Shown here piece after piece: positions 1-13,891 of a stretch of DNA of 64,000 nucleotides (positions are counted from its first letter, which is position 1; every line of letters starts with the position of its first letter). The stretch lies in contig JAGOQQ010000005.1 in assembly GCA_017991395.1 (NCBI GenBank), positions 4,726 through 68,725 of the forward strand, written 5' to 3'. The DNA comes from Minisyncoccota bacterium (GTDB taxonomy: Bacteria; Patescibacteriota; Minisyncoccia; Phycocordibacterales; UBA9973). The notes beneath the pieces are model-generated. The model did not search any database and was not told where the DNA came from. It worked only from the letters and a program-made list of their open reading frames with translations. Position numbers and translations under genes: made by a program.

Positions 1-1816
1 AGATCTTTTCAGATGAAATAATCATATTCTTCAAAGAAAAATTAAACGCACCAATAGAGCTTTCAAATCTCCTGACCAATAGACGCCTCATGAATTTTGA
101 AACGTTTACCTGAGCTTGTTTTATTTGTTGAATTTTTTCTTCAGGAGAAATGCCGTCTTCTTCGTATTCTTCAACTAATTTTTTCGCAAAACCAGACCCT
201 TCTTTTAAATAACTCAAAATCTTATATCGAACACCGCGAAAACCAACACTCCTGTCTTCGGGTGAAATTTTTTCTAGAGTGTTTGCATACAAATCAAACA
301 TTTCTCCCAAATCGTATTCTAGTAATTCAGGATCCTTAACTTTTGCAAAAGATACTCCTTGTGCTTTAAGGTCTTCTTTATATTCTTCAATTTCATCCAA
401 ATCCAATCTGGAACGTCTAATGATAAGGGGTTCTATCATTTTTCTCAATTCATCGGCAATTGAGTTTAATTCCACTTTAATCTCTGTGTCTTCAGATGAA
501 TTTTTACGCAACTCTCTTCTTACAGCTTTATATCTTTTGAACAGTGCATGAAAAGACATACTTAAGTTCTCTACGGTTCTAATTGTAGATTGACCCGGAG
601 TGCTAAATAGTTTTATAAGTGCGTAAATATCTTTTGGATCATTATTAAATGGTGTTGCAGAAAGAGCCATTACATAATGCCCCGCGCAAAGTCTATGCAA
701 CATTTTATAATTTTCAGTGTCCTCATTCCGGTGTTTATGCGCTTCGTCTAGAATGAAAAGAATTTTTCCAGTATCTGAGCCATGCCTATCTAATGCTTCC
801 TGAATTTTTCCTGTTGAATAAACTAATCCCTTAAAATCAAATTCAGACATATAATCCTTCCATTGATTTTCAAGATGAGGAGGAGCGATAACAATAGTTT
901 TAAGTCCTAAATTGTGTGCTATTGCTGATGCAATAATACTTTTTCCAAGCCCCACAACATCAGCAATAATTACTCCTCCAAATTTTTTGATTCGATCTAT
1001 CCCAAGATTAATTGCATCTTTTTGATATTTAAGATCAGAAAATTTACCTCCAGTTATATGTTTTGGAGTTTTCATGTCCTCAATTTCAGTAACAGAAAAA
1101 TACTCACTAAGTACTTTGTAATACATTAAGAGAGGATCTGGGAGAGAATAAAGCCATATTTTACTTTTTATCTCTTTTATAAAATTATCTGAAGACTCAA
1201 TATCAGTTATTGTTATATTATTTTCATCGTTCCAGTGATCTTCAAAATACGTAACCTGTTTATCATAATGGTGATTTTCTTCCAAAAGAATATTGAACTC
1301 TCTCTGTCCTTTTAAACCAGACTCACTAAGGTTACTGGATCCAATAACGACATATCCTTTTTGACCATCAGACGTATCAATTTTATTTAAAATATAAAAT
1401 TTTGAGTGATCTGGCTCAGCTGTCTTCTTAATTTGTAAACTACCATCTTTTATTTTGTCCAAAAAAATTTCAAACGCTTTTTGAGATTCTTCATTATCGA
1501 AGTAGTCCGTATCATTAAAGATTTGAGAAAAAGTATCTATATAGTCAGTTTTTGCTCCGGCACGAGAAGAAATATTTGTTTCAACCACATTAGAATCAAA
1601 ATTTAAATCTTTTAATACGGAAACTTTATCAATGATCTTCTTATCAATATCCATTCCAACTAAAATTCGGATTTGCTTGTCTTTTAATTCATTATGTAAA
1701 TCTTTAAATCCAGAAAAGTAGAAATAACCAACCAAGGCATCAATTTTGTCGCACTTTGGCAAAATTGATTTTAAGTTAGATGAAAGTGTATTTGTTCCAG
1801 TGTTTGTTATTGCCAT
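1..1816 (-). CDS. PLD-like (HKD) nuclease domain fused to SNF2-family helicase N-terminal domain. The gene is partial and its C-terminal part runs off the window start.
   Basis: Manual reverse translation from the ATG at 1816-1814. The N-terminal part has an HxK(x)4D(x)6GSxN motif (HSKFYILNKIDTSDGQKGYVVIGSSNLS). Further in are SNF2 motif I (DVVGLGKS), a DEAH box (LDEAHKHRNE) and motif III (LSATP). The reading frame stays open to position 1. The ORF is not in the supplied track because it is truncated by the window edge. Confidence 0.75.
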   Translation of the reverse strand, partial: MAITNTGTNTLSSNLKSILPKCDKIDALVGYFYFSGFKDLHNELKDKQIRILVGMDIDKKIIDKVSVLKDLNFDSNVVETNISSRAGAKTDYIDTFSQIFNDTDYFDNEESQKAFEIFLDKIKDGSLQIKKTAEPDHSKFYILNKIDTSDGQKGYVVIGSSNLSESGLKGQREFNILLEENHHYDKQVTYFEDHWNDENNITITDIESSDNFIKEIKSKIWLYSLPDPLLMYYKVLSEYFSVTEIEDMKTPKHITGGKFSDLKYQKDAINLGIDRIKKFGGVIIADVVGLGKSIIASAIAHNLGLKTIVIAPPHLENQWKDYMSEFDFKGLVYSTGKIQEALDRHGSDTGKILFILDEAHKHRNEDTENYKMLHRLCAGHYVMALSATPFNNDPKDIYALIKLFSTPGQSTIRTVENLSMSFHALFKRYKAVRRELRKNSSEDTEIKVELNSIADELRKMIEPLIIRRSRLDLDEIEEYKEDLKAQGVSFAKVKDPELLEYDLGEMFDLYANTLEKISPEDRSVGFRGVRYKILSYLKEGSGFAKKLVEEYEEDGISPEEKIQQIKQAQVNVSKFMRRLLVRRFESSIGAFNFSLKNMIISSEKI

Positions 1817-1820
1817 AAAT

Positions 1821-2042
1821 TTATTTCAAAAGTTCGCTACTGGAAATCCCAAGCGCTTTAGAAATTTTTTCTAAAGTTGAAAGAGTAGGATTCATTCGAC
1901 CATTTTCAATGTTGCTGATATATGCTCTATCAACACTCAAAGCGTTCGCAAGGTCTACTTGCGACATGTTTTTTTTCAAACGCCATTTTCTTAGGTTTTC
2001 CCCAAGTTTCTTTCCGGATGACATAAATGGATTATATTCCAA
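1821..2042 (-). CDS. XRE-family helix-turn-helix transcriptional regulator
   Basis: The sequence MSQVDLANALSVDRAYISNIENGRMNPTLSTLEKISKALG is a typical Cro/C1-type HTH. The stop codon lies 4 nt before the ATG of the downstream PLD-SNF2 gene. The likely true start is the internal Met at 2024, which is leaderless with respect to the -10 at 2031-2036. Confidence 0.8.
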   Translation of the reverse strand: MEYNPFMSSGKKLGENLRKWRLKKNMSQVDLANALSVDRAYISNIENGRMNPTLSTLEKISKALGISSSELLK

Positions 2043-2072
2043 GTTGCATCACATTACAACGTGTAATATAAT
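2031..2072. promoter_or_regulatory. Divergent promoter pair with a palindromic operator
   Basis: The plus-strand promoter is TTGCAT (2044-2049), a 17-nt spacer, then TATAAT (2067-2072). The minus-strand promoter is TTGTAA (rc of 2054-2059), a 17-nt spacer, then TATAAT (rc of 2031-2036), ending 7 nt before the Met codon at 2024. The palindrome ATTACA-acg-TGTAAT (2053-2067) sits inside both spacers and is the probable XRE operator. Confidence 0.55.
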
Positions 2073-2079
2073 TCACATA

Positions 2080-2445
2080 GGGCATGTCCGCCCCGAATTT
2101 CGCCAAAAGAAAACGGATGGAGCAAGCGGAGGATTCCTCCCCAGACCCCTTCTCCTCCGCTTGCGAAATCCGAAATTAGCCGAGGTTTTGCGGAAACCAT
2201 ATCCCCAGAAAAATGCTTCCGCAAAACCGAGTCCGCATTGTATTCGTGCTTCCGTCCTTTTCCTTTTGGAAAAGCTCTGTGCTTCGCACAGAGGCGCTTC
2301 AGCGCAACGGATGCACGAGATTAGTCACTTTGCCGTTCGAAAAAAGTTCGAGCAAAGTGTACGATTAGAGCACTAAAACAGTAGTAAAAAGAAATGGTGA
2401 GATGTATCTGTATTTACCTCCTCTCCTAGACAGGAGAGGATTGAG
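2080..2445 (+). ncRNA. Candidate structured leader or ncRNA. It is GC-rich relative to its surroundings and has nested stems. The class is unknown.
   Basis: It lies downstream of the plus-strand promoter. There is a perfect 11-bp stem gcaagcggagg (2122-2132) with cctccgcttgc (2153-2163), nested inside cgaatttcgc...gcgaaatccg. A 12-bp stem joins ggttttgcggaa (2183-2194) with ttccgcaaaacc (2217-2228). An 8-bp stem joins ctctgtgc with gcacagag (2275-2293). The terminal hairpin cctctcct-agac-aggagagg (2421-2440) contains the RBS for the GTG start at 2446. I recognised no known riboswitch consensus. Confidence 0.35.
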
Positions 2446-2854
2446 GTGAGGTTGATTGTACATTCCATGAATAGAATAATTAACAACTCAAATAGAAAAA
2501 GTTTTCGTAAAGAGTTGCGGAAAAATCAAACTCCGCAAGAAATTATTTTATGGTCTAAGGTACGAAATAATCAAACTGGTTTTAAATGGCGCCGACAAGT
2601 AAGTATCGGCTCATATATTGCTGATTTTTACTGTAAGGAAAAATTCTTGGTAATAGAAATTGATGGTTCACAACACGAAGATGCTAAGCTTTATGACAAG
2701 CAAAGGGAGAAATTTTTTCAAAATTTAGGAATTAAAACTCTTCGCTTTTGGAACAACGAAATAAATACCAACATCGAAGGTGTGATGCTTAAAATTTATT
2801 CCGAATTATCAAATACACTACCTCACCCCAACCCTCTCCTGGCAAGGAGAGGGG
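2417..2854 (+). mobile_element. DUF559 ORF bracketed by ~35-bp hairpin-containing terminal inverted repeats. It may be a small selfish element.
   Basis: The left repeat is CCTCCTCTCCTAGACAGGAGAGGATTGAGGTGAGG (2417-2451). The reverse complement of the right repeat (2821-2854) is CCCTCTCCTTGCCAGGAGAGGGTTGGGGTGAGG. The two differ only in the loop and a few spacer bases. Confidence 0.35.
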
Positions 2855-2883
2855 GCACCCAAAAACTCAACACACCAAAATGA
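2446..2883 (+). CDS. DUF559 endonuclease-domain protein with a Vsr-like fold
   Basis: It contains FLVIEIDGSQHED ... LGIKTLRFWNNEI, a typical DUF559 core. It starts with GTG after the RBS AGGAGAGG. Its stop overlaps the miaA ATG (ATGA). The C-terminal 20 aa are encoded by the right inverted repeat. Confidence 0.65.
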   Translation: MRLIVHSMNRIINNSNRKSFRKELRKNQTPQEIILWSKVRNNQTGFKWRRQVSIGSYIADFYCKEKFLVIEIDGSQHEDAKLYDKQREKFFQNLGIKTLRFWNNEINTNIEGVMLKIYSELSNTLPHPNPLLARRGGTQKLNTPK

Positions 2884-3740
2884 AAGAAAAAGAACTCAAT
2901 CAAAAACCCAAAATCATCGTCGTCTGTGGACCTACCGCCACAGGCAAAAGCGACTATGCGGTCACTCTCGCCAAAAAAACTTCAGGTGAGATAATTTCTG
3001 CTGATTCACGCCAAGTCTACAAAGGACTTGATATTGGTAGTGGGAAAATAACAAAAAAAGAAATGCGTGGTGTTCCCCATCACCTTCTTGATGTTGTCTC
3101 ACCAAAAAAAGTTTTCACTGTCGAGCAATTTCAAAAACTCGGAAAGAAAGCAATTTCCAATATTTTGAAAAAAGGCAAAACTCCTATCATCTGCGGTGGA
3201 ACTGGATTTTATATTGACGCTCTAGTGTATGAATCAAACTTCCCTGCCGTTCCGCCAAACAAATCACTTCGTACACAACTTGAGAAAAAATCTGTTGAAG
3301 AATTGTTTGAACTTGTACAAGAAAAAGATCCAGAGCGCGCAGATACTATCGACAGCAAAAACAAAGTGCGACTCATTCGCGCACTTGAAATAATTGATGC
3401 TATAGGAAAAGTGCCTAATGTCAAAAAAGAATCTACATATGATGTGGAGTGGATTGGACTAGATTTCCCCGACGAAATTCTCAAGGAACGAATTCACAAC
3501 AGACTTCTCGCACGAATTAAAAAAGGAATGCTCAAAGAAGCACACAATTTGCATACACAAGGTCTCTCATGGAAAAGAATGCGTGAACTTGGACTCGAAT
3601 ATCGATTTATGGCAGATTACCTCACAGGAAAAATATCGAAAGATGAAATGATAACACTACTCGAAACGGCAATCTGGCAGTACGCAAAAAGACAGAGGAC
3701 TTGGTTTAAGAGGAACAAGGAGATACGGTGGGTGAAATAG
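2880..3740 (+). CDS. miaA: tRNA dimethylallyltransferase
   Basis: The P-loop is IIVVCGPTATGKS. The motifs SADSRQVYKGLDIGSGK and ICGGTGFYIDAL match MiaA. Confidence 0.9.
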   Translation: MKEKELNQKPKIIVVCGPTATGKSDYAVTLAKKTSGEIISADSRQVYKGLDIGSGKITKKEMRGVPHHLLDVVSPKKVFTVEQFQKLGKKAISNILKKGKTPIICGGTGFYIDALVYESNFPAVPPNKSLRTQLEKKSVEELFELVQEKDPERADTIDSKNKVRLIRALEIIDAIGKVPNVKKESTYDVEWIGLDFPDEILKERIHNRLLARIKKGMLKEAHNLHTQGLSWKRMRELGLEYRFMADYLTGKISKDEMITLLETAIWQYAKRQRTWFKRNKEIRWVK

Positions 3741-3838
3741 AATTAGTTTTTTGACAAAAAATTCTTTTTATGTATAATAAATACTGCCTAACTCTTGGGG
3801 CATAATACCAAGAATTCGTTCATTTAAATTTAATAATA

Positions 3839-4717
3839 ATGATTCAAAAAATCAGAGAAACACAGAAAACCCATCTTCTAAACATGTTTGGAAATGTGAT
3901 TGATGCTCAATCCCTCACCAAGGATGAGGCACAAGTAATTATTACTCATGGCAATCAGTTGAAGGAAGACTTATTTAAGACTACAAAAGATTTTGTTCAA
4001 AGAGCTTTGTGGCAAGGAAATAACTATCCTAAAGATTATCGCCGTAAGCCAGTTGAACGTCAGGTAAACATTTTAGCCTCAGTTTTTGATTTATCAACTG
4101 ATGAAACAATGAAGTTTGTTACAGAACGATTACCTAACATTAAACTGCCCCGCCATGCCGAAGGATGGTTCGCAATTCCCTCTATCGAAGCTGTTGCGAA
4201 AAAACATTTTCCACAGGTAACAGGTGATATTGATCAGTATCGTGAATGTATTCGATTTGTTTGTAAAAAAGTTAAAGACACACGAGTATTTAGCGATTAC
4301 GGTTTGGGGTACTTCAATCATCATTCGTTCATGGAAAGACCAAAATCTTTAAACGCTTTTGGTTGGATGGGTGGACAAAAGGGAGAAATTATTATTATTC
4401 CTGCACAATTAGGAATGCGCTACCAAGGAAAGTCTATTAATGATGCTTTACAAGCATTCAGAAAAGAAGAATTTCCACTTGGAATGTTTGAAGTGCTTTC
4501 AATTCTCCTTACTCATCCTAAACGATTAGGAATTTATTCCGGTCTTGGTATGACATGTGCAGACAACGCTATATCAAACGATGGAGTTCCTAAGTATCCT
4601 CATTTTTGGATGGATTCAACAGAGCCTTCTTGGGGTGATAGAATAAACTTTCAAAACAGATTGAATGGTTATGACACACAACCTTATTATGCTGTCCTTT
4701 CTGGATTTAAATTTTAA
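3839..4717 (+). CDS. hypothetical protein
   Basis: It is a 292-aa ORF with coding-like composition. I recognised no motif. Confidence 0.5.
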   Translation: MIQKIRETQKTHLLNMFGNVIDAQSLTKDEAQVIITHGNQLKEDLFKTTKDFVQRALWQGNNYPKDYRRKPVERQVNILASVFDLSTDETMKFVTERLPNIKLPRHAEGWFAIPSIEAVAKKHFPQVTGDIDQYRECIRFVCKKVKDTRVFSDYGLGYFNHHSFMERPKSLNAFGWMGGQKGEIIIIPAQLGMRYQGKSINDALQAFRKEEFPLGMFEVLSILLTHPKRLGIYSGLGMTCADNAISNDGVPKYPHFWMDSTEPSWGDRINFQNRLNGYDTQPYYAVLSGFKF

Positions 4718-4736
4718 TTGAATTTAAACTTTTATA

Positions 4737-4766
4737 CCGCTTGCATTTTGCAGGCGGTATTTTTAT
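4737..4766 (+). terminator. rho-independent terminator
   Basis: The hairpin is ccgcttgc-atttt-gcaggcgg, followed by a T-run. Confidence 0.6.
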
Positions 4767-4822
4767 TTCTCAATTTAATATTATGGTAAAAGTATCTAAA
4801 AACGCTACTTTTTCACATCTAC

Positions 4823-5020
4823 GGAGGATGAAGGAATCTTTCCTTGCAGGAACAGTATACCTTTTCGGTGGAGATGAAGGAATCGGTCACAAGTCTTTTT
4901 CTACTGAAAAAGCTCGCGACCCCGCCTCCCGCCGTCGCGGTCCGGCTTTCGATTCCTTCATCCCTCTCGCAATGATGATACAAAAAGACAGAGCGTTTAG
5001 CTCTGCCTTTTTGTTCATTG
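4823..5020. repeat. Array of tRNA-Trp 3'-end-derived fragments joined to conserved element-end sequences
   Basis: GGAGGATGAAGGAATC (4823-4838) is a direct copy of the tRNA-Trp acceptor and T-arm up to the T-loop. It is followed by the 29-mer TTTCCTTGCAGGAACAGTATACCTTTTCG (4839-4867), which recurs at 50578-50606. A second copy GGAGATGAAGGAATCG (4870-4885) is followed by GTCACAAG..TTTTTCT. An inverted partial copy lies at 4947-4965. Confidence 0.6.
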
Positions 5021-5091
5021 CGGGGGATGAAGGAATCGAACCCTCACCAAAGGTTTTGGAGACCTTCGTTCTACCACTAAACTAATCCCCC
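5021..5091 (-). tRNA. tRNA-Trp (anticodon CCA)
   Basis: Manual fold: acceptor gggggat/atccccc, anticodon stem aaggt/acctt, loop ctCCAaa, T-arm gaggg-ttcgatt-ccttc. CCA is not encoded. Confidence 0.8.
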
Positions 5092-5261
5092 ATCTCCGCC
5101 ACAAGGGCGGACGACGCGAATGCCCAGCAAAATAATAATTATGCGGGATCACTTTCCTAAACTAAAGTGTTAGGACTAGAAAGAACATATAACAAAAAAG
5201 AAAAAGGAATCCCTTTTCTTTTTTGCAGTTCTAGTATAGCAAACCTTTCAATAGTAAGAAA

Positions 5262-5423
5262 CTATTTCTTTGCTTCCTTGTGAACAGTGTTTTTCTTACA
5301 CCATTTGCAGTACTTTTTGAGCTCGATCTTTTTTGTAACGAGCTTCTTATTTTTACTTGACCAGTAGTTGATTCTTTTACAACTTCCGCAGGCAAGCTTT
5401 ATCAATCTGTCTTGTGATGCCAT
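5262..5423 (-). CDS. rpmG: 50S ribosomal protein L33
   Basis: The 53-aa product is MASQDRLIKLACGSCKRINYWSSKNKKLVTKKIELKKYCKWCKKNTVHKEAKK, with a Cys4 zinc ribbon and the conserved KYC..C..HTVHKE motif. It is under 60 aa and so is missing from the ORF track. Confidence 0.8.
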   Translation of the reverse strand: MASQDRLIKLACGSCKRINYWSSKNKKLVTKKIELKKYCKWCKKNTVHKEAKK

Positions 5424-5517
5424 AGTGGGTATACAATACTATAATTTGTTTAAAAATGCAAGGATATATTATGGACAAAAGTGCAATAAAATGCTATTTT
5501 ATTTAGGTGTAAAGTAT

Positions 5518-5600
5518 GCGTCGGTGGTAGAGTGGTCAATTACAACAGACTGTAAATCTGTCGGCTTCGGCCTACGTAGGTTCAAATCCTACCCGGCGCA
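5518..5600 (+). tRNA. tRNA-Tyr (anticodon GTA)
   Basis: The acceptor is gcgtcgg/ccggcgc with one G-U pair. The anticodon loop is ctGTAaa. It has a long variable arm and the T-arm gtagg-ttcaaat-cctac. Confidence 0.8.
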
Positions 5601-5604
5601 CAAT

Positions 5605-5655
5605 AAAAATCCCCGTAAGGGGATTTTTTTGACGGGTAGGATTTGAACCGAAGGT
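5605..5655 (+). terminator. Terminator hairpin followed by an inverted copy of the tRNA-Tyr 3' end
   Basis: The hairpin atccccgtaaggggat plus a T-run lies at 5609-5630. It is followed by gacgggtaggatttgaacc (5632-5650), which is the rc of the T-arm and acceptor region of tRNA-Tyr and ends inside the T-loop. Confidence 0.6.
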
Positions 5656-5784
5656 GCCAATTTTTAATGAGCTTGCGTAGTATAAGCGATTGCTAAAAAT
5701 TGAGCATCTCGACTGAAAGGAGAGGCAAATCCTAATAATATATAAAAAATGAGCTACTGTTTTTTAAACAATAGCTCATTATAT

Positions 5785-6381
5785 TTAAAAGATTAAATCT
5801 CTTTTTTCTTTCAACAAATACTCAAACAATACAGCTCGAGTTCTATCTTCAGAAAATTTACGCTCAAGTAAAAGTTTAAATACTTCTTTGTACGTCATCT
5901 CAACAATTTCGATTCTTTCATCATCTTCAGGTCGAGGTTTTCCTTTCTGAAATTCTTCAACAAGATAATAATGCAAATCATGCTCAACGGTAGCAGACGA
6001 AGGAGAAACATAAAAAGGCTTCAGCCTTTCAATAAAAATACCAATCTCTTCTTTTGCTTCACGAATAATCGCATCACGAAGCATGTATTCATTCCCAGAA
6101 TTATCTGATCCGTCTTTTTCAAGAAAATCAAGATACTCACAAAGATTGTCGGCGACCTTTCCTCCAGTCAACCGATAATCCCACGGTTGATCAAGATATT
6201 CCCTTTTTTCTTTTTGAAAAATTAATCCTGTTTCTGTAGGAATTATTGCTCTTACCCCGGGAGATCTCCGGAAATATTCCTTGCCTTTTTCATTCTGAAG
6301 AACTTGTCCAATTTTTCCGTTAAACACAGGACTATATCCGTCGCGTGCATCAATTGCATAATTAATTGGTTTTATTTTCAT
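5785..6381 (-). CDS. NUDIX hydrolase
   Basis: It carries a Nudix box-like sequence, GGKV...E...LRDAIIREAKEEIGI. Confidence 0.6.
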   Translation of the reverse strand: MKIKPINYAIDARDGYSPVFNGKIGQVLQNEKGKEYFRRSPGVRAIIPTETGLIFQKEKREYLDQPWDYRLTGGKVADNLCEYLDFLEKDGSDNSGNEYMLRDAIIREAKEEIGIFIERLKPFYVSPSSATVEHDLHYYLVEEFQKGKPRPEDDERIEIVEMTYKEVFKLLLERKFSEDRTRAVLFEYLLKEKRDLIF

Positions 6382-6548
6382 AGTTATTATTTTTAAATAT
6401 TATATATAATTTTAAATATTTGTCAATATTATAAAATTGATTAGCAAACACTTTACATAAGTGTTTTCATGATACCAACTATGTAGCGCTTTGACTTCTT
6501 TGTTATTGACAGGAACTTTAAATATGTTATTATTGTGAAAAACCGAAC

Positions 6549-7091
6549 ATGAAAAAGGACCCTAGAATCAAGAATCTTGAAAGGATTCACAAAAAACTTC
6601 AATCAACTACCGATAGATTGGGAATGCCCATCGATAAGGGTATTTTTAATACTGTGAAGTACCTCAATGCACTGGGCTACAAAACATCAATGAGCTGTGA
6701 GGGGCATCTTAAAAAATCTGGAAAATTACCTAATGGCGGACTACCATTTCCTTGGGTGGTAATTGATTACGCTAATGACAATGCTGATTTGCAAAAAATG
6801 ACTGACAGCGAAAGGAAACTGTACAAAAAGAATCAACTAAAGAAATGTTTTCCTGTGATGAACGAAATATTAGGTCTTATTGATGAATTTTATAAAAACA
6901 GGCACCATGTGCCATCAATACACAAAATCACAGTAATACCATTTCATCAGGGAAAATTGCGCATTCAAAGTCTTTCTGGATACTTTATTGAAGCTCAACC
7001 AAAAAAAGTTCAATCTGAATGGTTTTTCATAACCAGTATGGAAATGCGATATTTTACAAAATTCTTAGGAATAAAGTACTTCTCAAAATAA
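6549..7091 (+). CDS. hypothetical protein
   Basis: It is a 180-aa ORF. A bidirectional terminator, atcccccttccgggggat (7100-7117), follows it. Confidence 0.45.
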   Translation: MKKDPRIKNLERIHKKLQSTTDRLGMPIDKGIFNTVKYLNALGYKTSMSCEGHLKKSGKLPNGGLPFPWVVIDYANDNADLQKMTDSERKLYKKNQLKKCFPVMNEILGLIDEFYKNRHHVPSIHKITVIPFHQGKLRIQSLSGYFIEAQPKKVQSEWFFITSMEMRYFTKFLGIKYFSK

Positions 7092-7127
7092 GTATTTAAA
7101 AATCCCCCTTCCGGGGGATTTTATAAT

Positions 7128-9824
7128 TTACATCGACTCCTTCTTGCTTCTTGTCTTTGCAATCGGGCTTTTTGTTTTTGATCTACGAGTATCTATGTGA
7201 AGTGCACCATCTTTTACCGACACGTACACCACATCACCCTTTTCTGCTCCCTTAGTAATGATATGTGATGCGACAGGATTCAAAATCTTTGTTTGAATCA
7301 GACGATTGAGTGGTCTTGCACCATACTGTGGATTGTACCCTTCCTTACCGAGCAGTTCGAGTGCTTCATCGGTGATTTGAAGTGCAATATCTTTTGCAGT
7401 CAATCGTGCGCGAACTTGCTCGATTCTGATTTCTACAATATTTCTAATTGATTGAGGTGAAAGAATATCGAATAGAATAATTTCATCAAGACGATTCAAA
7501 AATTCTGGGCGGAAATGATCTTTGAGACTTGTCATAACCTTTTCTTTTGTCTGAACATAATCATCTGTAGCGGTGTTGTTAGAAAATCCTATTGTCTCCA
7601 TTTTTTCAATATGCCGTGAACCAATGTTTGAAGTCAGAATAATTACAGAATTTCGGAAATTCACCACTCTTCCCTTTGCATCAGTGAGTCGTCCTTCATC
7701 AAGCACTTGAAGGAGAATATTGAATACTTCAGGATGAGCTTTTTCAATTTCATCAAACAAGATTACTGAGTACGGGCGATGTCGGACCGCTTCGGTAAGC
7801 TGACCTGATTCATCGTGTCCTACATATCCTGGTGGCGAACCCACAAGCTTTGACACACTGTGTCGCTCCATATACTCAGACATATCTACTCTAATAAGCG
7901 CCTTGTCATCATTGAAAAGAAATTGCGCGAGTGCCTTTGTGAGTTCTGTCTTTCCGACTCCTGTTGGACCAAGAAATATAAATGAACCGATTGGGCGATT
8001 TGGATCTGCGATTCCAGCACGTGAACGGCGAATCACATCAGATATTTTGGTAATTGCTTCACTTTGTCCTATCACACGTTTTGTGAGCTCTTCTTCCATT
8101 CGAGCAAGTTTTGCACGTTCTTCTTCCAGCATCTTTGCAAGAGGAATACCTGTCCATCGTGCGACAACTTCTGCAATATCTTCACTTGTAATTTCTTCTT
8201 TGAGAATACGACGAGATTTTTGGAGCTTCTTCAGTCGTCCGAGCTTCACGTCGAGTTCTTTTGAGAGAGTAGGAATTTTTCCATAACGAATTTCAGCTGC
8301 TCGAGCAAGGTCTGCACGCATTTCTGCTTGCTCAGCTTCTAGTCGGAGTGCATCCAAATCTTTTTTGATTGTCCGAATCTCTGTGACGGTAGTTTTCTCG
8401 TTTTGCCACTTGAGTTCAATTTCTCGAGTTTTTTCTTTGTGGTTTGCAATTTCTTTATCAATATCTTTGATACGATTTTTTGTTCCCTTGTCTTCTTTGT
8501 CGGCAAGTTCAACTTCTTTTTTCAATGCTTCTTTTTCGATTTCAAGTCGCATAATTTTGCGATGGGCTTCATCGAGAATTGGAGGTTTATTTTCAAGTGC
8601 AATCCGAAGAGAAGATGCTGCTTCGTCTATGAGGTCGACAGCTTTGTCAGGAAGATTTCGATTTGTGATGTATCGTACAGAGAGATTGACCGCAGATTGA
8701 ATCGCGTCATCCGTAATACGCACGCCGTGATAGAGTTCATATTTTTCTTTGAGTCCACGCAAAATAGCAGTCGCGTCCTCAGGTGATGGTTCTTCTATGT
8801 AGACAGGCTGAAATCGCCGAGCGAGGGCTGGATCCTTTTCAATGTGTTTTTGATATTCTTTAAGAGTTGTTGCTCCGATTGCACGAAGTTCTCCGCGTGA
8901 GAGTGCCGGCTTGAGCATGTTTGATGCATCAAGTGAACCTTCTGAAGCCCCTGCGCCTACGATAGTATGAATTTCATCAATAAAAAGAATAATCTTTCCA
9001 TCAGCACGTTCGATTTCTTTCATGAGTGATTTCAATCGCTCTTCAAATTCTCCGCGGTATTTTGTACCTGCAATAAGTGAGCCCAGATCAAGAGAAACAA
9101 GCTCTTTGTCTTTCAAAGATTCTGTAACATCACCTTTGGCGATGCGTTGTGCCAATCCTTCTACTACTGCAGTCTTACCTGTACCGGGTTCTCCAATCAA
9201 AATTGGATTGTTTTTTGTACGACGTGAAAGAATCTGCATAATCCGCATTATTTCTGTATCGCGTCCAATCACAGGATCAAGCTTGTCTTCTTTTGCAAGT
9301 TTTGTAAGATTGCGAGTGTATTTTGTGAGTACTCGAAACTTTTTTGGAGAATTTGTGTCGGTAATATTTTGAGCTTTGAATTCTTCGACAATTTTCAGCA
9401 CTTGATCTTTGCTAATTCGGAAACGAGTGAGAAGTTCTTTTGCATCACTTGGAACTTCGAGAAGTGCAACAAAAATATGTTCTGTTGATACAAATTCATC
9501 TTTCAAATATCCTGCGACTTTGCTTGATGTTTCGATGACTTGTGCGAGGTCAGGCGTGAGGTACAGCTGAAACGAGGGTGACGCAACATTGTTGACGCGA
9601 GATTCAGGTGCTTCGATATTTTCAAGTACCGAATCAGTAAGAAGCATCGAATCTATCTCGAGTCGTTCGATGATTGAAAGCACCATAGACTCCTCTTGTA
9701 AAAGGAGTGCGGTGAGAAGATGAAAAGAGTTCACATGGTTTTGACCTCGCTCAATAGCGAGTTCGTGTGCCTTCTTGATAGCTTCTTTTGCTTTTGATGT
9801 GAAGTGATTGAATGGAGGCATCAT
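7128..9824 (-). CDS. clpB: ATP-dependent chaperone ClpB (Clp/Hsp100 AAA+ family)
   Basis: It has an N-terminal Clp N domain, two AAA+ modules ([16 protein letters not shown]) and a long coiled-coil middle domain between them. Confidence 0.9.
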
Positions 9825-9862
9825 ATAGTGTGATTATATAATTTTATTAAAAAATGTCAAAC

Positions 9863-10600
9863 CTACAACCCAAACGTATTTTTCAATTCAGCACCGAAAA
9901 TAACGAGTCCTGTGGTGTCTGTGGCAAGTAATACTCCGAGTGCTTTTCCCTCTTTGTTGACCACGAGTGCGCCTGACTTCATTTGTGGAATAGATGTAAG
10001 CTCTATTCTGGTTCCATAGCCGTCATCTGGCGAGACTGTTTTGACATATACTTTGTCAAACGAAAGAGGATTGCCTTCAATGACGTAAAGCTCATCCCCT
10101 GAAACTGGAGTAGGTGCGTCAAATGTGACAAATTTTTCTGAAGTGATTTTCTTTGATGATTCAAAAAAAGTGATTCGCTCAAGGCTTGAAGACGCGGGGA
10201 TTTTTTGTTCAACACCTGCAACAAGTGAAGCGTATTCCTTTTTTAACTCAATCAACGTTCCTTCACTTATGTACGAGAGCAACTTCCCTTTCGACACCAT
10301 TACGAGTGGGCGAGAAAGTGTCTTTGTGTCATCAAGATATAGTATGCCTACAGAATCCTTGTATTTTGCAACAATATCCGAAGCCGAAAGCGGTGCGGGC
10401 ACAACTGGTATTTCTGGTGTCACCGGTGCAGGATTTGGGTTAAATGTATCTTTGACGACTTGATAGATAGTCTGCGTCACCGGGACTGAACGTTGTTCCA
10501 TGACAGACACTACAGCAATTGCCGTGACAATTGCGGTGACAAAACTTATAAGAAGTCCAAGTAAAATTAATTGTGTTTTTGTAAGATCATTAATATCCAT
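9863..10600 (-). CDS. Hypothetical membrane-anchored protein. Its C-terminal region weakly resembles a trypsin-like peptidase.
   Basis: It has an N-terminal TM segment. MKSGALVVNKEGKALGVL resembles GNSGGPLVN..G.VIGI. The track ORF extends to 10651, but an internal Met start at 10600 avoids overlap with iscS. Confidence 0.4.
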   Translation of the reverse strand: MDINDLTKTQLILLGLLISFVTAIVTAIAVVSVMEQRSVPVTQTIYQVVKDTFNPNPAPVTPEIPVVPAPLSASDIVAKYKDSVGILYLDDTKTLSRPLVMVSKGKLLSYISEGTLIELKKEYASLVAGVEQKIPASSSLERITFFESSKKITSEKFVTFDAPTPVSGDELYVIEGNPLSFDKVYVKTVSPDDGYGTRIELTSIPQMKSGALVVNKEGKALGVLLATDTTGLVIFGAELKNTFGL

Positions 10601-10610
10601 ACTATTAGTT

Positions 10611-11864
10611 CTAACGATTTTTTGCCAAAATCGTGATTGATTGATTTGCAAGATCGACTACATCGCGAAGCGCACGAACAAAGTACACCAAATCTTTTTT
10701 TTCTGTCTGTCGTCCGAGTGTTATTCGCAAGCTACCATCTTCAGGTTTAATTTCTTTCGATAGTGCCATTATAACATGAGACGTGTGTTCGTCTAACGCA
10801 TTGCATGCACTTTTTGAGGATACACGAACACCTTTTGCATCAAGTCCAATCACGAGTGCGTCACTTTCGATTCCATGAAATGTAAAATTGATATTGTTTG
10901 GAAGTCGCAGTGTCTCATGACCATTGAGCTCGGCACCTGGAAACTCTTTTCGAATTTCTTTAATCAAAAAATCTCGAAGTATCGTCAGTCGCTTCACTTC
11001 CTTTTCTTTTATTTTTTCAGCAAGCAAAAGTGCCTGCGCAAAACCAAGTATTCCTGGAATATTTTCTGTTCCTGGTCTTACATCAAATTCTTGTTCACCA
11101 CCTTTCATTATTCCTGAAAATGGAAGTCCGCGTTTTTTGTAGAGCATTCCAACACCTTTTGGACCGTAAATCTTTGAACCATTACAACTAAGCATATCTA
11201 CTCCCAAAGGTGGGACTCGAAGTGGCAAATAATTCACGGCTTGTGTGGCATCTGTGTGGAAAACTGGATACGGTCCAGAAATTTCATTATGCTTTTTGAA
11301 ATGTCGAATTGCTTTTGCAATTTCCGAAATCGGCTGGATTGTACCAATCTCATTGTTTGCATACATCACCGAAACAAAAATCGTATCCTTGGTCAGTGCA
11401 TCGCGGACATCTTTTGGATTTACTATTCCGTCTTTGTCGACAGGAATAAGAGTGACATTGACACCACTTGATCTTATAAACTTTGCAGATTCAAAAAGCG
11501 CTGAATGTTCGATTGCAGAAATAATGATATGTGGATTCTTTGTGGTTTCTTTTGATTTCAGCAAATATCCTTCGAGTATTCCACTAATCGCCATATTGTC
11601 GCTTTCAGTTCCACTTCCGCAAAAAATAATCTCATCCGAATGCACATCAAACACACCCGCCACATCTTTGCGGGCTCTAGTCAGGGCTTCTTTTGCACGA
11701 AGTCCATCTTTGTGCAATGCACTTGGATTGCCAAAATACACCTCACTCGCTTTTTTAACGACTGAAATGACCGACGGATCAATGGGTGTATTTGATGCAT
11801 AATCAAGATATACACTTTTTTCGATTTTCTTTGATTTTGTTGTTTTTCGTGTGGTTGTTGCCAT
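10611..11864 (-). CDS. iscS: cysteine desulfurase (class V aminotransferase; IscS/NifS family)
   Basis: It contains SGTESDNMAI, HTDATQA and the active-site region SCNGSKIYGPKGVGMLY. Confidence 0.85.
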   Translation of the reverse strand: MATTTRKTTKSKKIEKSVYLDYASNTPIDPSVISVVKKASEVYFGNPSALHKDGLRAKEALTRARKDVAGVFDVHSDEIIFCGSGTESDNMAISGILEGYLLKSKETTKNPHIIISAIEHSALFESAKFIRSSGVNVTLIPVDKDGIVNPKDVRDALTKDTIFVSVMYANNEIGTIQPISEIAKAIRHFKKHNEISGPYPVFHTDATQAVNYLPLRVPPLGVDMLSCNGSKIYGPKGVGMLYKKRGLPFSGIMKGGEQEFDVRPGTENIPGILGFAQALLLAEKIKEKEVKRLTILRDFLIKEIRKEFPGAELNGHETLRLPNNINFTFHGIESDALVIGLDAKGVRVSSKSACNALDEHTSHVIMALSKEIKPEDGSLRITLGRQTEKKDLVYFVRALRDVVDLANQSITILAKNR

Positions 11865-11874
11865 AATTTCTATT

Positions 11875-11903
11875 TATTGCAAAAATGATGATTTTGCACT
11901 ATA
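11875..11903 (+). promoter_or_regulatory. sigma70-type promoter for the infB operon
   Basis: TTGCAA (11875-11880), a 17-nt spacer, then TATAAT (11898-11903). Confidence 0.55.
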
Positions 11904-11915
11904 ATCTATGTCTAT

Positions 11916-12371
11916 ATGATAGCAAATACATCAATTATCCTCTATGGGGCAATAGTACTACTTGTCATTAATATCATATGGCTTGTCAGAATGGAAATGA
12001 GACTCAAAAAAGTCTTCCGTGGAAAACGCGCCCAAGACCTTGAAGAAATCATGTCGGGACTTCGAAAAGACATCGACACACTTCACACATTAGAGCGAGA
12101 TCTTGATGTTCGCTCAAAAAATATGGACGCGCGTATTCGTACAAGCCTACGTGGAATTGATACTATCAGATTTAATCCATTCAAAGATCAAGGAAGCAAC
12201 CAAAGTTTTGCAATTGGACTTTTGAATGAAGAAGGAACTGGTGTAGTCATCTCTAGTCTTTATTCACGAGACAGAGTTTCGGTATTTGCAAAACCAATCA
12301 AAAAAGGTCAGCCCGAGTACGACCTGACCGAAGAAGAATCAATCGTATTCAAAAACGCATTACCAAAATAA
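11916..12371 (+). CDS. Small membrane protein. DUF4446-like is a tentative call.
   Basis: It has an N-terminal TM. It sits in an operon position ahead of infB. Confidence 0.4.
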   Translation: MIANTSIILYGAIVLLVINIIWLVRMEMRLKKVFRGKRAQDLEEIMSGLRKDIDTLHTLERDLDVRSKNMDARIRTSLRGIDTIRFNPFKDQGSNQSFAIGLLNEEGTGVVISSLYSRDRVSVFAKPIKKGQPEYDLTEEESIVFKNALPK

Positions 12372-12385
12372 TTTACTAAAAAAAT

Positions 12386-13891
12386 ATGAACACTAAAGGA
12401 GTCACTGTACGTCCTCCTGTTGTTGTCATTATGGGTCACATTGACCATGGCAAATCAACACTATTGGACTACATTCGAAAATCAAACATAGTGGACAAAG
12501 AAGCGGGTGGTATCACTCAGCATCTTTCTGCATATGAAGTGATTCATAAAGACGAAAAAGGAGAAAGTCGCAAAATTACTTTTCTTGATACTCCAGGACA
12601 TGCAGCATTTTCTGGTATGCGTGAACGTGGCGCAACAGTAGCAGACATTGCAATATTGATTGTATCTGCAGAAGACGGCGTCAAGGCTCAAACTATTGAA
12701 GCATTAAATACTATTGTAGAAGCAAAAGTTCCCTACCTCGTTGCGATCAACAAAATCGACCGACCTGGAGCAAACGTGGAGAAAGCAAAAATGGAATTGA
12801 TGGAAAAAGGTGTGTATCTCGAAGGATATGGCGGAAATATTCCATATGTTGAAATTTCTGCAAAGGCTGGGACAAACATTCCTGCACTTCTCGATACAAT
12901 CTTACTTGTTGCTGATATGGAAAACTTCACAGGCGACATGTCAAAAACCGCGCGCGGTATTGTGATCGAATCAAACATGGATCCAAAGCGTGGAATTTCT
13001 GCGACAATGGTGATTAAAGATGGAACACTTTCAAAAGGAATGTTTTTGGTTGTAGAAGACGCAATTGTTGCAACTCGCATTATGGAAGATTTTCTCGGAA
13101 AAACTATTTCTGAAGTTTCGATGTGTGCACCTGTGCGACTGATTGGTTTTGATAAAGTTCCTGCGGTAGGATCAGTGTTTGAATCTTTTAATTCAAAAAA
13201 AGAAGCTGAATCTGCTGTTGCACTCTACAAAGAGATACTTCGCACAGGAACTTCAACTGTCAAAAAAGAATTACTATCACCAGACACGAAAGTTATTCCA
13301 ATTGTCATCAAGACTGATGTGGTGGGAACTGGTGAAGCAATTGAAAAAGAAATACTAAAAATGAACACTTCAGAAATTTCATTCAAAATTCTTTCTCGTG
13401 GAGTTGGCTCTATTGGTGAAAATGATCTCAAAGCTGTAAGTGGTGACAAAGAAGCATTGATAGTGGGATTCAACGTCAAAATCGACTCAAAGGCCGAAAA
13501 CTTAAACGAATCATTGCAAATCCCAGTTCACACATACACAATCATTTACAAGCTCACAGAGATGCTTGCAGAACTTATTGAAGAACGCCGACCACGCAAG
13601 CAAGTCATGGAAGTTGTAGGAAAAACAAAAGTACTGAAAACATTTAGTGCGACAAAAGAACGGCGTGTGATCGGTGGACGTGTGGAATCAGGCAAACTCG
13701 CACAGGGTCACAAAGTAAGAATAATGCGACGTGATTTTGAAATCGGCGAAGGTGTAATCATTGGTGTAGAACAAGGAAAAATTAAGTCAAAAGAAGTACT
13801 CGAAGGAAACGAGTGCGGAATCCTGGTTGAAGCAAAAAATGAAATCGCACCCGGTGATTATCTTGAATCTTTTGTGATGACGACAAAATAA
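12386..13891 (+). CDS. infB: translation initiation factor IF-2 (short form lacking N-terminal domains)
   Basis: The G domain has [12 protein letters not shown] and DTPGHAAF. The C-terminal IF2 domains are present. Confidence 0.9.

Follow-up and report, generated by a model that had tools for sequence, protein, structure and literature searches.

A putative ATP-dependent restriction-modification operon with a C-like regulator, an HKD-SNF2 nuclease-ATPase and a methyltransferase, beside a structured repeat in a Minisyncoccota bacterium

What kind of system begins with a small XRE regulator placed directly before a phospholipase D (PLD) nuclease domain that is fused to an SNF2 motor? This arrangement occupies positions 1-2072 of a stretch of 64,000 nucleotides (nt), referred to here as the window, from a Minisyncoccota bacterium (assembly GCA_017991395.1, contig JAGOQQ010000005.1, 4,726-68,725 of the forward strand). 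In this study, we report that the first 2 kb of the window is the front of a restriction-modification (R-M)-type defence cassette in a candidate-phyla-radiation bacterium. As predicted from the translated sequence, the gene order is that of a three-gene operon, consisting of a C-like XRE protein of 67 amino acids (aa), an HKD-SNF2 protein of 1088 aa, and a gamma-class N6-adenine methyltransferase (MTase) of 1048 aa with a C-terminal TaqI_C domain. Taken jointly, the C-like XRE, the HKD-SNF2 protein as restriction subunit (R) and the MTase as modification subunit (M) are read as a two-subunit ATP-dependent R-M-like system that forms the cargo of cassettes bounded by a structured repeat, E350; we put the probability of this whole reading at about 0.7.

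The helicase gene is cut by the window edge, and a preliminary description of the locus had supposed that a partner gene, such as a methylase, might lie just past position 1. The 67-aa XRE product led to contig JAHZTO010012305.1 (GCA_020049755.1; L083), the first 7775 nt of which correspond to window positions 7775..1 at 100% identity and which adds 4725 nt past the window edge. The supposition proved correct, as the added DNA encodes a 1048-aa MTase whose start is overlapped by the helicase stop over 4 nt. The operon is therefore tightly packed, with a 4-nt gap between XRE and helicase followed by this 4-nt overlap. In operon orientation, no terminator was found between the genes on the + strand and the XRE promoter was the best + strand promoter match; a search for an internal MTase promoter returned promoter-like sites at chance frequency only. 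Relatives were taken from public contigs or stretches, labelled Lnnn. Scanning of metagenome contigs with the N-terminal 330 aa of the helicase gave 80 loci at 37-93% identity, and conservation was assessed in alignments of 22 and 36 HKD-SNF2 family members at 37-81% identity. One relative, L001, shows 91.7% nt identity to the window end and 93.3% to L083.

The predicted R subunit is encoded at 2..1816 on the minus strand, where an open frame of 605 aa without stops runs from the ATG at 1814-1816 to the window edge; these are the first 605 codons of the 1088-aa protein, and the full gene lies at 5960-9226 of the identical contig L083, where the R and M genes together span 5960-12369. Pfam searches matched PLDc_2 at residues 45-195 (30.6 bits, cut-off 27) and, C-terminal to it, SNF2-rel_dom (46.6 bits, cut-off 24.9), with ResIII and DEAD also matching, while Helicase_C was found in the C-terminal half (58.7 bits). 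A single HKD catalytic motif, H137-x-K139...G159-S-S-N162, is encoded at 1331..1408 (minus strand), and the first lobe of the SNF2 ATPase spans 737..952 (minus strand) from the Walker A motif GLGKS (938-952) to the DEAH box (737-748), both checked against the DNA. In both family alignments H137, K139, G159, S160 and N162 are invariant, as are G289-L-G-K-S293, D357-E-A-H360 and the motif III residues T388-P389; in motif VI (QRxGRxxR), R801, G803 and R804 are at least 90% conserved. The protein thus carries everything by which SNF2 enzymes are recognised, namely the superfamily 2 (SF2) motifs I, II, III and VI together with SNF2-rel_dom and Helicase_C, and, for the PLD/HKD superfamily, the catalytic His, Lys and Asn of the HxK(x)4D(x)6GSxN motif and, in the predicted model, the PLD fold. 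The N-terminal HKD nuclease fused to an SNF2 ATPase, as the preliminary description had it, was confirmed by the Pfam matches and by the invariance of the catalytic residues.

An AlphaFold model covering the first 272 aa of the helicase (pLDDT 81) was searched with Foldseek. The best match was SauUSI (E = 9e-8), followed by BfiI, Zucchini, NgoAVII R and Nuc, with a probability of 1.0 and with modest TM-scores of 0.35-0.45 of the query. In the model, SauUSI, BfiI and NgoAVII, all restriction nucleases, are the nearest structural neighbours of the PLD domain, which agrees with the earlier view of the fusion as an architecture of the restriction or defence type. By sequence, the helicase is remote from all solved structures, the best matches, Chd1, RapA, ISWI and DDM1, having E-values of about 1e-6 to 1e-7. 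The distant PDB and NCBIfam matches thus include RapA and eukaryotic remodellers, and the preliminary description had itself named an orthologue of the housekeeping SNF2 protein RapA/HepA as the outcome that would undo its proposal. The RapA profile, however, gave 34.8 bits against a cut-off of 576, the HKD motif is invariant, and the gene is linked to an MTase throughout and has a patchy phyletic spread with recombinases nearby. The RapA/HepA reading is effectively refuted, and its remaining chance is negligible.

No second HKD motif was found: the 605 aa in the window hold one PLDc_2 stretch, the conserved alignment columns of the family hold no further motif, and Pfam detected no PLDc_2 in the C-terminal 770 aa of the L001 helicase, which is 98% identical. 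In Nuc, BfiI and SauUSI the PLD active site is completed by two chains. Because each helicase chain has a single HKD motif, its active site would likewise need two chains, and by this analogy we infer that the helicase chains dimerise.

The MTase contains Eco57I, N6_Mtase and TaqI_C domains, with weak MmeI_hel and MmeI_Mtase matches (Pfam), and the NPPY and DPACGSG motifs are present in the translation from L001. Its best PADLOC match is a Type IIG enzyme (249 bits), which aligns only from residue 161; since the profile match begins only there, the nuclease domain of Type IIG enzymes appears to be missing. The N-terminus (residues 1-160) is conserved, including E60, H63 and D68-P-R70, and comparison of the family sequences revealed no conserved D...(D/E)xK motif in it. 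Judging from these sequences, the MTase has probably lost the Type IIG nuclease.

Across the relatives, wherever enough downstream DNA is available, essentially all loci have an MTase homologue directly downstream of the helicase, even at helicase identities as low as 42%. MTase residues 1-780 align well among loci, and the C-terminal recognition domain diverges or fails to align, as is expected of a specificity domain. Relatives of the helicase protein were found in Patescibacteria, Atribacterota, Elusimicrobiota, Actinomycetota, Planctomycetota, Clostridia, Bacteroidota and others, and the gene linkage indicates that helicase and MTase are an obligate pair across many phyla. The two proteins could instead work independently, the MTase as a Type IIG/L enzyme or orphan methylase and the HKD-SNF2 protein as a SauUSI-like Type IV ATP-dependent nuclease. 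Such independence would fit the Type IIG match of the MTase and the closest structural match of the PLD domain, SauUSI being a Type IV PLD-helicase. It is at odds with the strict linkage and the overlapping stop and start over 42-100% identity, with the Type IIG match that begins only at residue 161 of a protein whose N-terminus has no conserved PD-(D/E)xK, and with the profile searches of the helicase, which detected no SRA or DUF3427-type reader of modified bases. We consider independent proteins an unlikely explanation, and retain the pair as one system. In two loci (L076 6001-7084 and L077 1686-2103) the helicase match ends after about 104 aa, and MTase-like sequence that begins at about residue 393 follows directly; the pair has apparently undergone an internal deletion or decay there.

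The helicase and MTase were then compared with named families, using NCBIfam and PADLOC profile scores against curated cut-offs. The top match of the helicase was DrmD (144 bits, cut-off 610); the anti-phage PLD protein gave 112 bits (cut-off 1100), DpdE 98.5 bits (cut-off 500), PglX 99.9 bits (cut-off 500), and HmaA in PADLOC a partial match of 76 bits, for which no cut-off is given. The best named matches of the pair were DrmD, 'C3a139 HKD+Snf2', HmaA and PglX. Since all matches were partial and far below the cut-offs, we rejected placement of the pair in DISARM, BREX, Dpd, Zorya, Hma or RapA. The comparison with DISARM, BREX and Zorya-type models and the search for a neighbouring methyltransferase, both of which the preliminary description had proposed, thus ended with sub-threshold defence-family matches and with the MTase described above. 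We read the pair as an ATP-dependent R-M-type system outside every named system.

It could also be a fragment or reduced form of a larger system, such as Type-2 BREX-related (BR/Hma), DISARM class 1 or ARMADA, with the other components located elsewhere or lost. An HKD-Swi2/Snf2 helicase with an N6-MTase is the exact effector/modifier pair of Type-2 BR (PMC12839542), an SNF2 protein with a PglX-like MTase recurs in DISARM I and ARMADA, and the four best named matches also favour such an origin. Clustering of the neighbouring open reading frames (ORFs) at about 80 loci, however, revealed no conserved third gene adjoining the pair, and no gene for DUF499, DUF3780, DrmA/DrmB (YprA/DUF1998), PglZ or a BrxC-like protein was conserved beside it. 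DUF499 and DUF3780 were not found by this clustering, in which individual neighbours were not all scanned with Pfam, and PglZ and BrxC, sought by the same clustering as a test for BREX, were absent from the neighbourhoods. What the clustering did find points to mobile DNA: large serine recombinases at 15 loci, RadC-like genes and variant XREs. The DrmD and PglX scores (144/610 and 100/500 bits) and the partial PADLOC matches also speak against a larger system, as do the housekeeping genes that bound the operon on the XRE side within the E350 cassette. In L083 and L001, the flanks hold housekeeping genes on one side and a Cas4-like gene and SduA on the other. A remnant of a larger system is thus improbable, if slightly less so than independent action of the two proteins, and a self-contained pair is preferred.

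In L001 (5469-7284), the MTase is followed by the Cas4-like PD-(D/E)xK gene (PDDEXK_1) and then by Shedu SduA (PADLOC E = 5e-97), and a Cas4-like gene recurs at L022 7083-7733. The surroundings of L001 are a defence-island setting, and the Cas4-like gene could be an accessory of the R-M system in the L001/L022 sub-clade.

Does the small gene at the front of the operon fit a restriction system? The XRE/HTH_3 regulator is encoded at 1821..2024 on the minus strand (67 aa; the coordinates include the stop), and its stop codon TAA (1821-1823) is separated by 4 nt from the helicase ATG, so the gap given in the preliminary description agrees with the coordinates. It matched HTH_3 at E = 4e-19 (Pfam), its best PADLOC match was the R-M 'Control_protein' at E = 3.4e-18, and the controller proteins C.Esp1396I (6e-8), C.BclI (1e-7) and C.AhdI (4e-7) were near the top of its PDB matches. 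The ATG at 2024 was taken as the start, this 67-aa product being on record and the closest relative, L004, using the same ATG; the 73-aa protein from TTG 2042 that mechanical ORF prediction gives has no such product on record. By sequence, the XRE resembles the controller (C) proteins of R-M systems. Like these it is located directly upstream of a restriction gene, with 4 nt here and 4-7 nt in 18 relatives.

The upstream slot is not filled alike in all loci. Among those with at least 64% helicase identity, 18-19 have a small XRE 4-7 nt upstream, and the others have an HTH_17 protein, a zinc-ribbon protein or nothing; in the clade at 42-49% identity none has an upstream XRE. In L029, L073, L034-L036, L072 and L031 the slot holds either a 62-63 aa excisionase/MerR-type HTH_17 protein or a 63-aa four-cysteine zinc-ribbon protein, which suggests that the small regulators are interchangeable.

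The XRE and the operon are predicted to be transcribed from a minus-strand promoter at 2031..2059, consisting of TTGTAA (2059-2054), a 17-nt spacer and TATAAT (2036-2031), with 10/12 matches in a promoter scan. As its -10 hexamer ends 6 nt before the ATG at 2024, a leaderless XRE mRNA is predicted. A similar spacing recurs among the XRE-bearing relatives, 12/16 of which have TATAAT or TATACT ending 6-7 nt ahead of the ATG. A second promoter, directed outward on the + strand at 2044..2072, was read from the sequence as TTGCAT (2044-2049), 17 nt and TATAAT (2067-2072); the promoter scan did not list it because its -35 hexamer matches at only 3/6 positions. A -10 hexamer ends 10-17 nt before CCGCCCC in 28/32 distinct XRE-side E350 flanks, compared with 13% of shuffles, and on this comparative evidence the divergent outward promoter is real.

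Between the two lies a putative operator, ATTACAacgTGTAAT, at 2053..2067, which reads ATTACA-acg-TGTAAT with the half-site TTRCA and is unique in the window, where 0.35 matches with up to one mismatch are expected. A third half-site, TTGCA, is located at 2044-2048, 5 nt from the palindrome. The palindrome is centred about 36 nt upstream of the leaderless start; it overlaps the -35 hexamer of the XRE promoter, and with respect to the + strand promoter it lies in the spacer and touches the -10 hexamer. Much of what the preliminary description had said of this region was upheld: an XRE promoter that predicts a leaderless transcript, from the 6-nt distance and its recurrence in relatives, and divergent promoters, the geometries of both being conserved among relatives with the putative operator between them. 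Its placing of the palindrome in the spacers of both promoters holds for the outward one and fails for the XRE promoter, where the -35 hexamer itself is covered.

The support for the operator comes from the conservation of its half-sites in relatives. In L099, L136, L148, L119, L129, L004, L116 and L143, whose XREs are of the window type (81-97% identical), the half-sites are kept and the 3-nt spacers and the -10 region vary. A sister group of XREs, about 90% identical and sharing the recognition helix VDRAYISNIENG, has TTGCA-N5-TTGCA-N4-TGCAG in this position, which suggests TTRCA as the half-site. Among the XRE clades, the inverted repeats centred 30-46 nt upstream differ, and several are highly significant (0-3/500 shuffles). 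It might be argued that the XRE is an antitoxin or the immunity repressor of a mobile element, and that the palindrome and the + strand promoter arose by chance in AT-rich DNA. The XRE/HTH_3 family is indeed very broad, with HipB, RstR and phage repressors also scoring; the -35 hexamer of the + strand promoter matches at 3/6 only; and the perfect 6-3-6 repeat is not significant alone, as 98/500 shuffles of the 90-nt upstream region contained one of equal or greater length. Such an origin would not account for half-sites that are kept in at least eight relatives with varying spacers, for clades that carry different, often highly significant palindromes at the same distance, for the -10 boxes of both promoters at fixed positions, or for a gap of 1-7 nt between XRE and the next gene in nearly all loci. 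Chance or an antitoxin role is therefore regarded as very unlikely. A C-like regulator remains the preferred reading, and the XRE would regulate both promoters.

Where does the outward promoter point? Beyond the 2 kb covered by the preliminary description, a structured repeat, designated E350, extends over 2085..2373 (+ strand), starting at TGTCCGCCCC and forming the cassette boundary. It contains hairpin 1 (2122-2133/2153-2164) and hairpin 2 (2184-2195/2217-2228), with the conserved C-rich loops TTCCTCCCCAGACCCC and CCCCAGAAAA. Window positions 2073-2445 yielded no credible ORF, no tRNA and no Rfam match (Rfam 15; gathering threshold over the whole window, E up to 10 over 1950-2950); the searches gave no support to the GC-rich intergenic stretch being RNase P RNA, tmRNA or a group I/II intron. 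The first approximately 160 nt of E350 are conserved beside the XRE in L004, L005 and L006, even at 52-56% XRE identity, with stems that change by compensatory substitutions and C-rich loops that stay constant. A MAFFT and RNAalifold analysis of the whole 380 nt was too gappy for a structure, and a covariance model (R1) was built on the first 160 nt; it scored 182.6 bits on the window copy and found about 100 copies in Patescibacteria contigs. Double-sided changes were seen in 24/27 base pairs, with 94% of cells paired compared with 27-58% in slid controls. Wobble pairs, counted as a guide to the strand, were evenly balanced, with 24 G.U and 26 A.C cells.

In GTDB species genomes, a two-anchor pattern picked out 78 stretches, nearly all of them from Patescibacteria and a few from short contigs binned elsewhere; the covariance model did not confirm the matches in Verrucomicrobiota and Acidobacteriota contigs (L087, L147, L157), which were taken as chance. 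The repeat runs over 290-370 nt (found in L084-L161) and has two or three hairpins; a search of IMG/VR viral contigs gave no copy. The E350 copies form inverted pairs that are 95-100% identical within a genome and enclose 2-8 kb, some of them inside long curated contigs. That these pairs might be processing stems of rRNA operons was rejected, there being no rRNA or other Rfam match in 11 such loci. An 8-bp direct repeat, TTAAATAC, flanks one of the three testable pairs (L150 and L155, LBUF02000001.1, about 37.0-42.8 kb, in a curated Parcubacteria genome), where 13 nt separate the cassette from the 3' end of tRNA-Gln; the repeat has the look of a target-site duplication. The other two testable pairs have no flanking direct repeat.

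Immediately outside E350 in the window, an ORF at 2446-2883 (+ strand) encodes a DUF559 protein (Vsr-like endonuclease fold, E = 3e-34). It is bracketed by a 36-nt inverted repeat (2417-2452 and 2820-2855, 86% identical) of the type CCTCCTCTCCTAGACAGGAGAGG, and a DUF559-like ORF also occurs near E350 in L005 (396-764).

The two ends of the E350-bounded cassettes differ. At the 'head', the divergent XRE and the outward -10 hexamer stand beside E350; at the 'tail', a GC-rich structured region of 400-470 nt often lies just inside the far E350 copy. Tail copies were located on the minus strand in L089 (152-611), L106 (4133-4593) and L152 (202-661), and on the + strand in L043 (about 12400-12950) and L024 (about 4800-5360). 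The tail has a closing helix of about 30 bp and 78 predicted pairs, 17 of them with compensatory changes, along with G.U pairs that are invariant in the outward orientation. Some variants are without the central module, and the tail sometimes directly follows a tRNA gene. As it gave no Rfam match at E up to 1, the tail is a candidate for a large structured RNA new to Rfam.

Most of the cargo consists of R-M systems of Types I, II and III, this HKD-SNF2 system and other defence genes. Found after the XRE were Type I hsdMSR, an EcoRI-like methylase, Type III mod-res, Dam-class and N4/N6 methylases, Z1 helicase, R.Pab1 and fusions of an SF1 helicase with a restriction endonuclease. Genes without a defence role are few, examples being an AMP-binding enzyme and a GT8 glycosyltransferase. 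The E350 cassette at L137 5709-7565 carries an N4/N6 methylase and then a helicase with ResIII and Z1 domains; the H subunit of CglI/NgoAVII uses a motor of the Z1 type, and therefore the cassettes collect several kinds of ATP-dependent restriction systems. Patescibacteria are largely without CRISPR, and candidate-phyla-radiation bacteria rely heavily on R-M. Model-defined E350 is present at only 4 of the approximately 80 HKD-SNF2 loci, with diverged variants or the tail motif in a few more, e.g. L018, L043 and L024. The XRE is best seen as the regulator of a cassette type, and the HKD-SNF2/MTase pair as one cargo. In the literature we found no description of E350-type cassettes, nor of a shared, structured, regulator-headed repeat family. 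We give even odds to a broader proposal, in which the E350-bounded cassettes are an undescribed class in Patescibacteria with XRE, operator and outward promoter as their head, and in which E350 and the tail, as new non-coding RNAs or as DNA hairpin sites, serve to mobilise, exchange or insulate the defence cassettes.

How might such a system work? In the mechanism we propose, the MTase subunit would read a short asymmetric site through its variable recognition domain and methylate host DNA. At unmethylated sites it would recruit or license the SNF2 motor, which would translocate along double-stranded DNA with ATP, and two chains would have to come together for a complete PLD active site, as those of Nuc, BfiI and SauUSI do. 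With one HKD motif per chain, cleavage would follow the collision or dimerisation of two motors. The behaviour might thus resemble that of Type ISP or Type III enzymes, built here from a PLD nuclease, an SNF2 motor and a separate Type IIG-like MTase without nuclease. An XRE dimer would bind TTACA-N3-TGTAA, which covers the -35 hexamer and falls within the spacer of the outward promoter, and would thereby autoregulate the operon and gate the outward transcript into E350.

Several points weigh against this reading of the locus. R precedes M in one apparent operon, and therefore a delay of the C type cannot separate the expression of M from that of R in the way it does in classical Type II systems under C control. 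Near-identical XREs precede MTases, Type I and Type III genes and even non-defence genes; because they head such differing cargo, the XRE would be a regulator of the cassette and not a dedicated controller of this nuclease. The lack of significance of the 6-3-6 palindrome taken alone belongs here too. In the window protein the Asp position of the HKD motif is N144, although Asn at this position is a tolerated variation. Lastly, the HKD-SNF2 family is known here from sequence alone, and a physical interaction between R and M is suggested by gene linkage only.

Were the reading correct, the pair would be an ATP-dependent restriction system made of parts not yet found together in a characterised enzyme, with R combining a PLD nuclease and an SNF2 motor and with an MTase/recognition subunit derived from Type IIG enzymes. 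Since the pair is widespread among uncultivated phyla, a single biochemical study would provide an annotation for hundreds of genes, and would also bear on the question whether a single-HKD motor cuts by collision. The cassette architecture suggests how candidate-phyla-radiation bacteria package, regulate and perhaps exchange defence genes. E350 and the tail, two structured nucleic-acid elements outside current classification, are the newest and least understood part of the locus.

How does the locus compare with known systems? Type ISP enzymes (LlaGI, LlaBIII) combine a nuclease, an SF2 translocase of double-stranded DNA, a gamma N6-adenine MTase and a C-terminal recognition domain related to Type IIG/MmeI (PMC3874165). 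The pair has the same functional parts list, and a similar logic of collision-type cleavage is expected. Type ISP enzymes, however, are single polypeptides with an Mrr/PD-QxK nuclease, whereas here there are two polypeptides, a PLD/HKD nuclease, an SNF2-like motor and a C-like regulator ahead of them; it is because this parts list is split in two proteins, with other nuclease and motor families, that the pair was filed apart from the named systems. Type III systems have a beta-class Mod with an internal recognition domain and a Res with a C-terminal PD-(D/E)xK, in contrast to the gamma/Eco57I MTase with C-terminal TaqI_C and the N-terminal PLD of the pair. In Type IIG/IIL enzymes (MmeI, Eco57I), an N-terminal PD-(D/E)xK is fused to the MTase, and the MTase of the pair appears from its sequence to be without such a motif.

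Type-2 BR/Hma systems contain the same pairing as here, an N-terminal HKD-Swi2/Snf2 helicase with an N6-MTase as effector and modifier, which has been proposed to be R-M-like; their defining component is a DUF499 AAA+ ATPase, which is joined in 98% of cases by DUF3780 (PMC12839542). DISARM class 1 (DrmD SNF2, DrmMI methylase, DrmC PLD, DrmA/B) and ARMADA share the three activities of the pair, and in both DISARM I and ARMADA the SNF2 helicase and PglX-like MTase occur together with a YprA helicase. In DISARM class 1 the PLD and SNF2 proteins are separate, whereas they are fused here, and DrmA/DrmB (YprA helicase, DUF1998) are not conserved beside the pair. SauUSI and NgoAVII/CglI resemble the R subunit in coupling a dimerising PLD nuclease to an SF2 ATPase. 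SauUSI, which is of Type IV, reads modified cytosine through a dedicated domain and has no MTase; in NgoAVII/CglI the PLD is on an R protein with a B3 domain and the helicase is separate and of the Z1 type.

The regulator finds its counterpart in C proteins such as C.PvuII, C.AhdI, C.Esp1396I and C.BclI, in which an HTH_3 protein just upstream of and co-oriented with the R gene, a palindrome over its own promoter and a leaderless mRNA are combined as is predicted here; for C proteins, an operator over the promoter and a leaderless mRNA are the typical arrangement (PMC2632904). Their operators are 35-bp double C-boxes with a conserved GTG (PMC2632904), whereas one 15-bp palindrome with an extra half-site is present here. 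Further unlike C proteins, the window XRE has M downstream of R in one operon and a putative operator that also serves the outward promoter, and its family heads Type I, II and III as well as non-R-M cassettes.

For the cassettes, the nearest comparison is with the units of Furuta, Abe and Kobayashi (2010), in which R-M genes lie between inverted repeats, no transposase is present and an 8-bp target duplication occurs in some cases (PMC2853133). One E350 pair has an 8-bp direct repeat as well. The repeats of the Furuta-type units, however, are 26-65 bp long and private to each unit, whereas E350 measures 290-370 nt, is structured with conserved loops, and is common to many cassettes and Patescibacteria lineages. 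Unlike those units, the E350 cassettes also have a head of regulator and promoter and, often, a structured tail of 400-470 nt.

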